From Thermoplasmata archaeon (GTDB lineage: Archaea > Thermoplasmatota > Thermoplasmata > Lutacidiplasmatales > UBA184): a stretch of DNA of 64,000 nt. Positions within the stretch are counted from its first letter, which is position 1. Each line of letters starts with the position of its first letter. The stretch spans positions 12,300 to 76,299 of the forward strand of contig JAVYSA010000001.1 of the NCBI GenBank assembly GCA_038729445.1, read 5' to 3'. Positions 27,509 through 33,418 of the stretch are shown one piece after another. The notes under the pieces are model-generated. The model saw only the letters and a list, made by a program, of their open reading frames with translations. It had not been told where the DNA came from and did no database searches. Both the position numbers and the translations under genes were made by a program.

Positions 27509-28194
27509 GTGGCCGGAGCCGGCGAGGCCCCCGCGCCCTCCCTTGGCTGCCGGCGCGGGCCGTTCCGCGAGCCGCCCGGGGAGGACTTCGGCCGGATCCT
27601 CTCCCGGAGCGACGGGATCTTCGCCTTCGCGCTCACGCTCCTGGTCGTCAACCTCACGGGGCTCGGCTTCCTCCGCTGCGAGACCGCCGCGAGCCCCCCC
27701 CGGCTGGACCGAGGACTGCCTCGTCTCGAACCTCTGGGCCACCCCCCCTGGCACGCTTCGGCTACGCGATCGTCTGCTTCGGGATCGCCCTCTGCTGGGC
27801 GAGCCACCACCGCCTGTTCCGCTCCATCGAACGGTACGACGGCGTGGTCCTCTGGACGAACATCCTCGTCCTCATCGCCGTGCCGCCGTTCGTGCTCGAG
27901 GTCTACAACCGCTTCCGCGCGACCCCGGCCGGGGAGACGCTCTTCGCCGTGACCCGCGCTCCGATCGGTCTGCTCCTCGCCGCGATGTGGATCCGGGGGA
28001 CCGGACCGGCGGGCCCGGTCGACCCGGCCCTGCCGATGGCGACCCGACGCTGCCTCCGGGCCCGCGGGCTCGCGTTCCCGCGGATCTTCCTGGCCTCGAT
28101 CCCGGCGGTTTGGGTCCTGCCGGGCTACGGGGCGTGCATCGGGCTCGGGATCGTCCCCGCACGCATGGGGATGCGCCGCTACGGCGCTGCGTGA
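27509..28194 (+). pseudogene. DUF1211/TMEM175-like membrane protein gene disrupted by a frameshift (or sequencing error)
   Basis: The N-terminal part, in the frame of ORF 27509..27952, carries the family signature RILSRSDGIFAFALTLLVVNL. The C-terminal part, in the frame of ORF 26644..28194, carries FGYAIVCFGIALCWASHHRLFRSIERYDGVVLWTNILVL. The frame switches by one nucleotide between two homopolymer C runs, C8 at about 27694-27701 and C7 at about 27743-27749. Confidence 0.6.
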
Positions 28195-28421
28195 GCGTCG
28201 CCGCCCGGTCCGACGACAAACCGGTGGAGCCGGTCGCACGTCTGCCGGAAGTACGCGGCCCCCTGCGGCGCGTACTCGGTGCGGAGCCGCTCCTCGATCC
28301 CTGCCTCGTCGAGGGTCCGGTCGAACGACGGGGTGAACATGCAGGCGAAGACGACGAACCGCCGGTCCTCGATCTCGAACCGGTCGGTCTCCGCGGCGCC
28401 GCAGAACGGGCAGGTCACCAT
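28179..28421 (-). CDS. Small CPxCG zinc-ribbon protein (about 80 aa)
   Basis: MVTCPFCGAAETDRFEIEDRRFVVFACMFTPSF...YFRQTCDRLHRF. An alternative ATG at 28448 (MLPGGIGSG-) lies 4 nt after the stop of the upstream nuclease gene. It is the C-terminal part of listed ORF 28179..28856. Confidence 0.55.
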   Translation of the reverse strand: MVTCPFCGAAETDRFEIEDRRFVVFACMFTPSFDRTLDEAGIEERLRTEYAPQGAAYFRQTCDRLHRFVVGPGGDAHAAP

Positions 28422-30812: not shown

Positions 30813-33418
30813 CGGTCCCCCTCCGCCGGGGGCGATCCGGCGAGCCGCGCCTTGAGCTCCGCGAGGCGCCGCAGCGCCTCGACCGGCGTGATCCGCTCGA
30901 CGTCGATCGACCGGATCTCCTCCTCGACCGGCGACGGGGGCGCGGCTTGGGCCACGAGGATCGCCTGCGCGTAGCGGGGACCGCCCCCGGCGGCGGCCCG
31001 CCGGTCCGCGAGCGCGAGGCCTTCCGCCTCGAGCCGCCGCAGCAACCGCTGGGCCTCCTCGAGGACCGGGGCCGGCAGCCCGGCGAGCCGCGCGACGTGG
31101 ACCCCATAGCTGCGGTCGGTCGCCCCGGGGACCAGGCGGTGGAGGAAGACGATCCCGTCCGGGTGCTCCCGGACGGCGAGGTGCGCGAGCCGGGCCGAGG
31201 GGAGGCGCTCGACCAGCTCGGTGAGGTGGTGGTAGTGCGTCGCCAGGATGGTGCGCGCGCGGACGGTGTCGTGGAGGTGCCGCAGGACCGCCCATGCGAT
31301 CGCGACGCCGTCGAACGTGCTCGTGCCCCGGCCGACCTCGTCGAGCAGCACGAGCGAGCGGGGGGTCGCCTCCCGAAGGATCTCGGCGACCTCCGCCATC
31401 TCGACCATGAAGCTCGACTTGCCGCGGCCGATCTCGTCGGTGAAGCCCATCCGCGTGTAGAGGCCGTCGACCCGGCCGATCCGGGCAAACCGGGCCGGCA
31501 CGAACGCCCCGCTCTGCGCAAGGACCACCAGGAGGCCGACCTGGCGCATGTAGGTCGACTTGCCGGACATGTTCGGCCCGGTCAGGACGAGGAGGCGGGA
31601 CCCCTCCCCCTCCAGGTCGACGTCGTTCGGGACGAACCGCTCGGCGAGGAGGCGGTCGAGGATCGGGTGGCGGCCCTCGCGGATCCTGAGCTCGGTCGAC
31701 TCGTCGACCTCGGGCCGGACGCAGCGCCCGTGGACGGCCCGGGTCGCGAACGACTGCAGGGCATCGAGCGAGCCCAGCGCCCGGCCGATGCGGTGGAGCG
31801 CCGGAGCCGCGCGGTCGACCTCCTCGAGGAGGCGATCCCATGCCCGGAGCTCCTCCTCCCGGACCCGGGCCCGGGCGGCCAAGACCCGCGCGGAGCAGGC
31901 CTCGAGGCGGTCGGTGGTGTACCGTTCCGCCTGGGCGACGGTCTGGCGCCGGCGGTAGTGGGAAGGGACCTTCCCGGTGTGGGCCCGCCCGACCTCGAGG
32001 TAGTAGCCGAAGATCTGGTTGTAGCGGACGTGCAGCGTGCGGATTCCGGTCGCCTCCCTCTCCTCGCGCTCGAGGGCCTCGATCTCCCGGACCGCCGCGT
32101 CCTCCTCTGCGCGGGCCCGGTCGACCTCCTCCGCGTGACCGGGGCGGAGGAAGCCGCCCGCCTCGAGGGTCGGGGGGATCTCCGCGGGGAGCGACGCCTC
32201 GAGCGTGGCCAACAGCTCTCCGGGCGGAACGAGGTCCCGGACGAGGCGCTCGACGAGCTCCGATCCCAGCCCGGATCCCAGGGCGGACCGCAGCGGACCG
32301 AGCCGTCGCAGGCCGTCGCGCAGCGCCCCGAGGTCGGGGGGCCGGACCCTCCGCCCGACGACGCGGGAGGCGATCCGGCCGATGTCCGGTGCGTGGGAGA
32401 GGTGCTCCCGGACGGCGGCGAGGGCCGCGGGCGCCCCGACCAGGGCCGCGACCGCGTCCTGGCGGTCCCGGATCGGCCCGACATCAGCGAGTGGGTGGGT
32501 CAGCCAGAAGGAGAGGGTCCTCCGCCCCGCGGCGGTCCGCGTCTCGTCCCAGCTGCCGACGAGCGTCGAGCCCGAGGGATCGTCCGGGTTCATCGGACGG
32601 CTGATCTCGAGGTGGCGCAGGGTCTTGGCGTCGAGGCGCAGCGTCCGCGGGGGAGCCCCCCGGCCGGCCGGACCCAACAGGGGAAGGAGCCGGGGCTGCG
32701 TCGCGGCGAGATAGGCGGCCAGGGAGCGGTCGGCGAGCGCGACGGCCGGGGATTCCGGCGGGGCGGCCCCGGCCGAGGGGGATGCCTCCTCCGCGAGGGG
32801 GGGCGGGGAGGCCTCCACGGCGGCGGAGGGGAACTCGCGCCGGAGGACTGCGCCCAGCGGGCCCTCCGCCTCGGCCGCGGGAGCGACGAGGATCTCCCGA
32901 GGGAAGTACGGGGCCAGGGCCGCCGCGACCGACTCCGGGCGGGGCTCGTCCGAGAGCCCGTGGTACCACTCGCCGGTCGAGACGTCGACGGCGGCCCACG
33001 CCCCGGCCCCCTCCGCGACGACCGCCGCCGCGAGGAAGTTGTGGTCGGGTCCTCCCAGGATGCCGTCCTCGACGGCGGTGCCCGGCGTGACGACGCGGGT
33101 CACCTCCCGTCGGAAGAGGCCCTTGCCGTCCGCCGGCTCCTCGACCTGGTCGCACAGGGCGACGCGGTGGCCCTTGCGGACGAGCCGGGCGAGGTACGAC
33201 TCGACCGCGTGGTGCGGCACGCCCGCCATCGGCGTCCGCTGGCCGTGTGCGTCCGGCGCGCGGGCGGTCAGCTGGACGTCGAGCTCGCGGGCGAGCAGCT
33301 TCGCATCCTCCCCGAACGTCTCGTAGAAGTCCCCGACCCGGAACAGGACGAGGTGCCCGGGGTAGCGCGCGCGGACCCGCTCGTACTGCTCGAGGAGCGG
33401 GGTCAGGGAGGCGCCCAT
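30809..33418 (-). CDS. mutS: DNA mismatch repair protein MutS
   Basis: 869 aa. It has the N-terminal mismatch-binding domain TPLLEQYERVRARYPGHLVLFRVGDFYETFGEDA, the Walker A GPNMSGKST and the ABC signature. Confidence 0.9.
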   Translation of the reverse strand: MGASLTPLLEQYERVRARYPGHLVLFRVGDFYETFGEDAKLLARELDVQLTARAPDAHGQRTPMAGVPHHAVESYLARLVRKGHRVALCDQVEEPADGKGLFRREVTRVVTPGTAVEDGILGGPDHNFLAAAVVAEGAGAWAAVDVSTGEWYHGLSDEPRPESVAAALAPYFPREILVAPAAEAEGPLGAVLRREFPSAAVEASPPPLAEEASPSAGAAPPESPAVALADRSLAAYLAATQPRLLPLLGPAGRGAPPRTLRLDAKTLRHLEISRPMNPDDPSGSTLVGSWDETRTAAGRRTLSFWLTHPLADVGPIRDRQDAVAALVGAPAALAAVREHLSHAPDIGRIASRVVGRRVRPPDLGALRDGLRRLGPLRSALGSGLGSELVERLVRDLVPPGELLATLEASLPAEIPPTLEAGGFLRPGHAEEVDRARAEEDAAVREIEALEREEREATGIRTLHVRYNQIFGYYLEVGRAHTGKVPSHYRRRQTVAQAERYTTDRLEACSARVLAARARVREEELRAWDRLLEEVDRAAPALHRIGRALGSLDALQSFATRAVHGRCVRPEVDESTELRIREGRHPILDRLLAERFVPNDVDLEGEGSRLLVLTGPNMSGKSTYMRQVGLLVVLAQSGAFVPARFARIGRVDGLYTRMGFTDEIGRGKSSFMVEMAEVAEILREATPRSLVLLDEVGRGTSTFDGVAIAWAVLRHLHDTVRARTILATHYHHLTELVERLPSARLAHLAVREHPDGIVFLHRLVPGATDRSYGVHVARLAGLPAPVLEEAQRLLRRLEAEGLALADRRAAAGGGPRYAQAILVAQAAPPSPVEEEIRSIDVERITPVEALRRLAELKARLAGSPPAEGDR

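Follow-up and report, generated by a model that had tools for sequence, protein, structure and literature searches.

The question raised by this locus is whether a small nuclease gene that lies at the end of a mutS-mutL pair in an archaeon belongs to the repair system that it follows and, if it does, what it might contribute. The locus is found in a stretch of 64,000 nucleotides (positions 12,300 to 76,299 of contig JAVYSA010000001.1, assembly GCA_038729445.1, from a Thermoplasmata archaeon), referred to here as the window, which has a G+C content of about 75% and in which exact NCBI protein matches carry the locus tags QXG65_00180 and QXG65_00185. The minus strand between 28179 and 33418 holds four head-to-tail open reading frames (ORFs), mutS, mutL and two that are termed ORF3 and ORF4. 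An original prediction, made from the sequence alone, described them as a four-gene operon of mutS, an endonuclease-type mutL, a nuclease resembling the archaeal Holliday-junction resolvase Hjc and a small zinc-ribbon protein, and the placing of all four on one strand is borne out. The conserved unit is a three-gene mutS-mutL-ORF3 operon, which occurs in a deep clade of Thermoplasmata that are uncultured and come for the most part from soil and peat, and the reading favoured here, to which a probability of about 0.55 is given, is that ORF3 encodes an accessory nuclease coupled to MutL.

Linkage of ORF3 to mutS and mutL

The product of the first gene matches the Pfam domains MutS_I, III, IV and V and passes the NCBIfam cut-offs for bacterial MutS1 over its full length (PRK05399, 5e-250; TIGR01070, 1.5e-238), scoring 832 and 794 bits where 480 and 642 are required. 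MutL matches TIGR00585 (1.9e-129, 433 bits) and the Pfam domains DNA_mis_repair and MutL_C, and it joins a GHKL ATPase domain to C-terminal endonuclease motifs at amino acids (aa) 435, 543 (ACH), 576 and 595 (FLR). With this full motif set, including DQHAASERLLYE, the assignment of MutL to the endonuclease type stands, as does the ATGA join between mutS and mutL that had been read from the sequence. The DQHA(A/V/L)SER core is kept in nearly all of 82 MutL C-terminal regions (the window and 81 loci), and the QxLVxP motif in essentially all of the related MutL loci compared.

A scan of GTDB with one genome per species identified 105 genomes with a relative of ORF3, from which the 80 best loci were fetched; 78 of these are titled Thermoplasmata, the other two being assigned to a Methanobacteriota archaeon and to a 'bacterium'. 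When the four proteins of the window were compared by tblastn with these 80 loci and with six more obtained by an exact-protein look-up, mutL was found directly upstream of ORF3 in all 86, and mutS upstream of mutL wherever the contig reaches, with identities to the window proteins of 51-70% for MutS, 50-67% for MutL and 42-54% for ORF3. The stop codon of mutL and the start codon of ORF3 overlap by 4 nucleotides (nt), as (A/G/T)TGA with an in-frame ATG, GTG or TTG, in 73 of 82 distinct loci, are separated by 1-2 nt in five and could not be resolved in four; the tight packing on which the original prediction remarked takes the form, in the window, of a GTGA overlap. A profile search of 1.84 billion representative proteins gave 24 matches with E-values (E) below 1e-30. 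These strong full-length matches are small proteins that stand alone (120-198 aa, with a few truncated), and none of the 24 was found fused to another domain. The core family was found nowhere apart from mutL among the loci examined, and whereas the gene downstream of ORF3 varies among relatives the mutL-ORF3 junction is constant.

An important consideration is where ORF3 begins. It had been placed at the ATG at 28965, 38 nt past mutL, to give a product of 170 aa, and this is replaced here by the GTG at 29007, which is most likely the true start. Translation from the GTG gives exactly 184 aa, the length also of the NCBI model of the same protein, and most homologues are longer at the N-terminus, with a conserved Ser-Glu whose counterpart in the window is the 'PSEAAM' immediately before the ATG, its Glu falling on E12. 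The extension matters because E12, the first catalytic acidic residue, lies within it. The stretch upstream of the ORF3 start encodes the conserved C-terminus of MutL. The concern that the reading frame might be an artefact of high G+C content can be set aside, as 26 clusters of homologues at 42-56% identity retain invariant catalytic residues and the ratio of non-synonymous to synonymous substitution rates (dN/dS) is 0.07-0.2 in the closest pairs, which indicates purifying selection; ORF3 is a real gene. Its start codon shares nucleotides with the stop codon of mutL, so that ribosomes which finish mutL probably go on to translate ORF3, and the protein would then be made in step with MutL and might be expected to act with it on DNA.

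Fold and active site of ORF3

Among the 26 members D35, G36, D38, Y39, F40, D41, E54, K56, Q66, A67, R70 and R71 are invariant, and a second conserved block near the C-terminus includes W153, R167, E171, W172 and E176. When distant relatives are brought into an alignment of 15 sequences D41, E54, K56, Q66 and R70 remain invariant and E12 nearly so, and in the distant relatives taken alone the counterpart of E12 is always Glu. The helix-1 acidic residue, the strand-2 Asp and the strand-3 (D/E)xK of the PD-(D/E)xK motif are all present. The E/D...D...ExK signature that had been read earlier is therefore intact, but the Glu then implied was not the conserved one, which lay in the omitted N-terminus. 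An AlphaFold2 model built with the family alignment (predicted local distance difference test, pLDDT, 83.9; predicted template modelling score, pTM, 0.80) has the superfamily fold, to which a hairpin and a helical C-terminal region are added, and together with the E...D...ExK series it upholds the view of ORF3 as a PD-(D/E)xK protein. The figures listed with this model are 11.6 for 3dnx_A, 8.8 for PaqCI, 7.0 for NucS, 6.7 for AF2093 and AF1548 and 4.0-4.8 for Hjc and Hje, and a viral structure library gave eight matches at E ≤ 1e-3, phage entries named 'MmcB-like DNA repair protein' among them. None of the 26 family members passes any Pfam model. Touches below threshold are scattered over VpsR, AHJR-like, Mrr_cat, Hjc and PDDEXK_5, the weak matches of the window protein including VpsR (7e-4) and NA-iREase1 (0.1); NCBIfam gave a weak YraN touch only and a profile search of PDB sequences just a weak match to YraN/UPF0102 (E 0.095), 3dnx not being returned there at E ≤ 10. 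Given the superfamily fold and the failure to pass any Pfam model, sequence and predicted structure place ORF3 within the PD-(D/E)xK superfamily, not in Hjc or any other annotated family, and as judged on these grounds it is an unannotated family of its own. Two further proteins, P0072 (2990 aa) and P0088 (877 aa), resemble the ORF3 profile in its DPDGTDYFD loop only, with five matches in each; they appear to be repeat proteins that carry a comparable Asp-rich motif, and not relatives.

The identification of ORF3 as Hjc, which would make it the Holliday-junction resolvase of the lineage, set after mutL by chance, does not survive the profile comparison and now appears decidedly improbable. There are points of likeness, in that ORF3 shares with Hjc and Hje the superfamily and the E-D-ExK order, its spacing of 13 residues from D to ExK is the one that we take Hjc to have, and the top PDB matches in Foldseek are Hjc, albeit weak ones (E 5.8e-3 to 0.3, template modelling (TM) score 0.2-0.3). 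However, no member reaches the gathering score of the Pfam Hjc model PF01870, which two of the 26 touch at E of at least 0.11 (best 0.11) and the window protein does not match at E ≤ 1, and the model is neither closest to Hjc nor of its compact form of about 120-140 aa, since ORF3 has 184 aa and the added hairpin and helical region already described. Hjc is widespread in archaea, whereas genes of the ORF3 family occur in a single clade, and there invariably behind mutL. NucS/EndoMS, which acts without MutS-MutL and typically where these are absent, is a two-domain protein with an N-terminal dimerisation and DNA-binding domain, a C-terminal nuclease and a C-terminal PCNA-interacting peptide (PIP) box; in ORF3 the nuclease is N-terminal and the PIP box is found in none of 30 core members.

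Among structures of known proteins 3dnx (SPO1766), which represents DUF1052/PF06319/COG5321 (PMC3424549), is one to which the ORF3 model is similar, and Caulobacter MmcB is an SOS-regulated PD-(D/E)xK endonuclease that has been implicated in crosslink repair (PMC9578287). ORF3 is like the DUF1052/MmcB-like proteins in being, by its predicted structure, a small stand-alone nuclease of the junction-resolvase-like branch of the superfamily. No match to PF06319 at E ≤ 1 was found in the 26 members, however, and DUF1052 is mostly alpha-proteobacterial and without a link to mutL, whereas ORF3 follows mutL and is set apart by its DPDGTDYFD loop and by a conserved tail at the C-terminus. In this tail R167, E171, W172 and E176 are invariant and L174 nearly so, and residues 170-184 have a pLDDT below 50, which predicts disorder. 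A canonical PCNA-binding motif was also considered for ORF3 and was dropped on the PIP box count given above.

A very basic protein (isoelectric point, pI, 10.5) with a conserved and predicted disordered C-terminal motif might also have no catalytic role and serve instead as an adaptor or DNA-binding subunit, bringing MutL to DNA or to the clamp of archaea, and it would fit with this that the weak Pfam matches include inactive nuclease-fold domains (VpsR and NA-iREase1) and that the nuclease site of MutL is intact. Such a role is nevertheless improbable, as in about 100 species there is no variation at the four catalytic positions or at the extra acidic residues of the DxxDxxD loop, which distant relatives keep as well, and invariance of this kind is unusual among inactivated PD-(D/E)xK domains.

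ORF4 and the surroundings of the operon

ORF4 closely follows ORF3, as the original prediction had it, but its start at the ATG at 28421 puts the gap at 31 nt rather than the 4-30 nt then given. Its homologues, of which there are 34 clusters, all of them hypothetical proteins of Thermoplasmata, begin at the same position with M-L-x-CPFCG. Five of their residues, F22, F25, C27, C62 and H66, do not vary, and in the CPFCG knuckle C4 and C7 hardly do; the knuckle is a single one, with the invariant C27, C62 and H66 as further candidate ligands. In an AlphaFold2 model (pLDDT 82) the protein opens with a zinc-knuckle-like element and also has a hairpin and a long helix, and no family of Pfam or NCBIfam was matched above threshold.

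It could be supposed that all four genes, ORF4 included, form one functional system, given that they share a strand, that 31 nt is a short gap, that no TATA-like element or terminator lies between the genes and that the order is shared by the five closest species. The comparative data contradict such a unit and make it very unlikely indeed. Whilst mutS-mutL-ORF3 recurs in every relative examined, ORF4 comes after ORF3 in five closely related species only (L001, L007, L008, L009 and L010), lies about 7 kb away on the opposite strand in two others (L041 and L047) and is absent from the flanks in about 75 other mutL-ORF3 loci. On three long contigs with no mutL near, an ORF4 homologue follows guaA and a small ribbon-helix-helix-like gene and is convergent with a succinate dehydrogenase cluster (CCG/Fer2_3/FAD_binding_2), and in the window too ORF4 faces that same cluster, together with a TMEM175-like gene. 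The ribbon-helix-helix-like protein has 73-74 aa and lies about 50 nt upstream of the ORF4 homologues (5726-5947 in L089, 5729-5953 in L090). The succinate dehydrogenase block is thus a conserved neighbour of ORF4, and since ORF4 adjoins ORF3 in the five closest species only, the conserved unit comprises three genes and not four. From this gene order the position of ORF4 after ORF3 is judged to be a rearrangement within one subclade, by which ORF4 would have been brought alongside as a passenger outside the conserved module; the earlier picture of a zinc-binding protein that travels with MutS-MutL falls with it. In the window ORF4 may be co-transcribed with the other three genes.

Signals of transcription are sparse in this composition. 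The sequence ATTATAT is the sole run of A/T of at least 5 between 27.5 and 34.2 kb and is a candidate for a single TATA-type promoter, from which a leaderless or near-leaderless transcript would arise. No A or T homopolymer of at least 4 was found in the same 6.7-kb stretch, and a scan for sigma-70 promoters and intrinsic terminators, of a type ill-suited to archaea, found nothing. A terminator between the genes had been named as evidence that would count against co-transcription; no terminator-like site was found, though the base composition of the window makes this null uninformative. There are just 28 A/T runs of at least 5 in the whole window, and because they are so scarce AT-rich islands may mark promoters in this genome.

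The positions of these features and of the neighbouring genes are collected in the table. A tRNA-Ser gene (anticodon TGA) lies directly upstream of mutS on the same strand, with ATTATAT between it and the mutS ATG. Just upstream of these come a gene of the metallo-beta-lactamase (MBL) fold (Pfam, 7.9e-25) and a CGI-121-like gene, the latter a weak match (3.3e-4) below the cut-off, and the pair has the same synteny in L001, L003 and L005. A gene for a 301-aa protein farther along has no Pfam match, and in L003 and L005 the gene that corresponds to it in position and length encodes a protein of 303-304 aa, likewise without a Pfam match. On the other side of the operon the TMEM175-like channel gene is split across two reading frames; when the L001 homologue is aligned to it, residues 18-64 of that protein fall in frame 2 but residues 85-230 in frame 1. 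The frame changes somewhere between 27698 and 27759, and either a frameshift or an assembly error is responsible. Its 3' end is convergent with that of ORF4 and overlaps it at 28179-28194.

Table. Positions in the window of the genes, motifs and signals discussed
Feature	Position	Strand	Remarks
TMEM175-like channel gene	27557-28191	+	split reading frame
ORF4	28179..28421	-	80 aa, pI 5.0; small Cys/His protein (CPFCG, C27, C62, H66)
ORF3	28453..29007	-	184 aa, pI 10.5; GTG start overlaps mutL stop (GTGA)
ORF3 C-terminal tail R167-x-x-x-E171-W172-x-L174-x-E176	28480..28509	-	candidate docking motif
ORF3 Q66-A-x-x-R70	28798-28812	-	
ORF3 active-site segment D35-G-x-D38-Y-F-D41 ... E54-x-K56	28840..28905	-	
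ORF3 E12	28972-28974	-	
mutL	29004..30812	-	602 aa, endonuclease type; ATG overlaps mutS stop (ATGA)
MutL CPHGRP motif	29070-29087	-	aa 576
MutL QRLVDP clamp-type motif	29427-29444	-	aa 457
MutL endonuclease motif DQHAASERLLYE	29475..29510	-	aa 435-446
mutS	30809..33418	-	869 aa, bacterial-type MutS1 (Pfam and NCBIfam)
TATA-box-like ATTATAT	33442..33448	-	about 24 nt upstream of mutS ATG; putative promoter
tRNA-Ser	33467-33552	-	anticodon TGA
CGI-121-like gene	33745-34314	-	
MBL-fold gene	34311-35045	-	
301-aa protein gene	36892-37797	-	

Possible origin and role of ORF3

Beyond the core family about 120 further proteins of 130-340 aa match the nuclease core of ORF3 at E from 1e-14 to 1e-3. 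Most keep E..D..ExK..QA, and D..ExK..QA is present in 103 of 119. One of them, in the region 838-3847 of L087, comes directly after an MCM helicase with an end-to-end match to phrog_10371 (6e-184) and is set among many small ORFs on the same strand, a second, in the region 509-1384 of L088, lies in a similar array of small ORFs, and ORF3 itself matches phrog_12193 at 1e-5. A PIP-like C-terminal peptide, Qxx[LIVM]xx[FYW], which in several of the relatives reads QxxLxxF, is carried by 10 of the 119, where chance would give 1.6, and by 0 of 30 core members. Taken together these observations suggest that ORF3 was derived from a nuclease family of archaeal mobile elements, with its tail exchanged. 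A tblastn search of GenBank phages with ORF3 and one distant relative found nothing, nor did a scan of IMG/VR viral contigs for the distant relatives, and the label 'viral' therefore draws only on the one MCM-bearing contig, the PHROG matches and the matches to viral structures.

Such an origin raises the possibility that ORF3 is a domesticated mobile-element nuclease that owes its place at the end of the mutSL operon to history and serves another purpose, such as defence, general recombination or crosslink repair of the MmcB kind. The distant relatives at E 1e-14 to 1e-4, which share E..D..ExK..QAxxR, the viral type of the MCM helicase and the synteny that reaches upstream of mutS are in keeping with this, as is the fact that the top structural relatives are MmcB-like proteins, many of them from phages, MmcB being tied to resistance to mitomycin C and cisplatin and not to mismatch repair. 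Nonetheless it is considered unlikely, because the 4-nt overlap with mutL has been kept in 73 of 82 species despite MutL identities of only 51-65%, the core family was not found apart from mutL, and the junction has held where the downstream neighbour has not.

Several observations do weigh against the coupled nuclease that is favoured here. MutL already has a nuclease site of its own, so that no missing step demands ORF3, and the nearest relatives by sequence outside the clade are on virus- or plasmid-like contigs, a setting that also suits a domesticated mobile-element nuclease with some other role. In the three relatives examined most closely synteny extends also to the genes upstream of mutS (CDC48, DUF72, MBL-fold and Cgi121-like), and part of the conserved adjacency could accordingly reflect inherited gene order and not selection; adjacency is thus weaker evidence than the overlap of start and stop codons and the absence of ORF3 from other contexts.

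If ORF3 is nevertheless an accessory nuclease coupled to MutL, it would be a catalytically active endonuclease, directed to DNA structures or to nicks, and would act together with MutS-MutL. As MutL retains its own endonuclease and clamp-type motifs, ORF3 is not a substitute for nicking by MutL, and it would more likely supply a downstream step that was absent from the archaeal host when bacterial-type MutS-MutL was taken up. It might do so by excising from the MutL nick, by removing a displaced flap or by cutting mismatched heteroduplex or branched intermediates, with the predicted disordered RxxxEWxLxE tail as a likely tether to MutL or to the sliding clamp. The fuller proposal, that ORF3 is a third core component of archaeal MutS-MutL repair, a MutL-tethered PD-(D/E)xK nuclease from a mobile-element family that acts after MutL nicking in one of these ways, is put forward tentatively and at somewhat less than even odds.

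The closest functional precedent in prokaryotes would be MutH, a small PD-(D/E)xK endonuclease that is the third partner of MutS-MutL. The analogy is a limited one. The MutL that works with MutH lacks the endonuclease motif, whereas MutL here keeps DQHAx2Ex4E and CPHGRP, ORF3 does not have a MutH/Sau3AI-like structure, and E. coli mutH is not known to be translationally coupled to mutL. In eukaryotes Exo1 and FAN1 dock on MLH1 by means of MLH1-binding peptides, and the VRR-nuc domain of FAN1 also has the PD-(D/E)xK fold; the likeness to ORF3 would be one of concept only, that of an accessory nuclease docked on a MutL homologue by a short linear motif, the contact between ORF3 and MutL being a putative one.

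Little is understood of the MutS-MutL systems of archaea, whose role has been called into question. We know of no executor of the steps that follow the MutL nick where bacterial UvrD and the bacterial exonucleases are missing, and the literature searched yielded no account of an archaeal nuclease gene coupled to mutL. The nuclease gene that adjoins mutL at its end in over 100 species is a concrete candidate for the post-nick step, and its product is small and can be expressed and assayed as a recombinant protein. ORF3 adds what is, from sequence and predicted fold, an unannotated family to the PD-(D/E)xK superfamily, and it may offer a prokaryotic parallel to the MLH1-docked nucleases of eukaryotes. 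Were it indeed a third component of MutS-MutL repair, it would show how a bacterial-type repair system has been fitted to the archaeal replication machinery.

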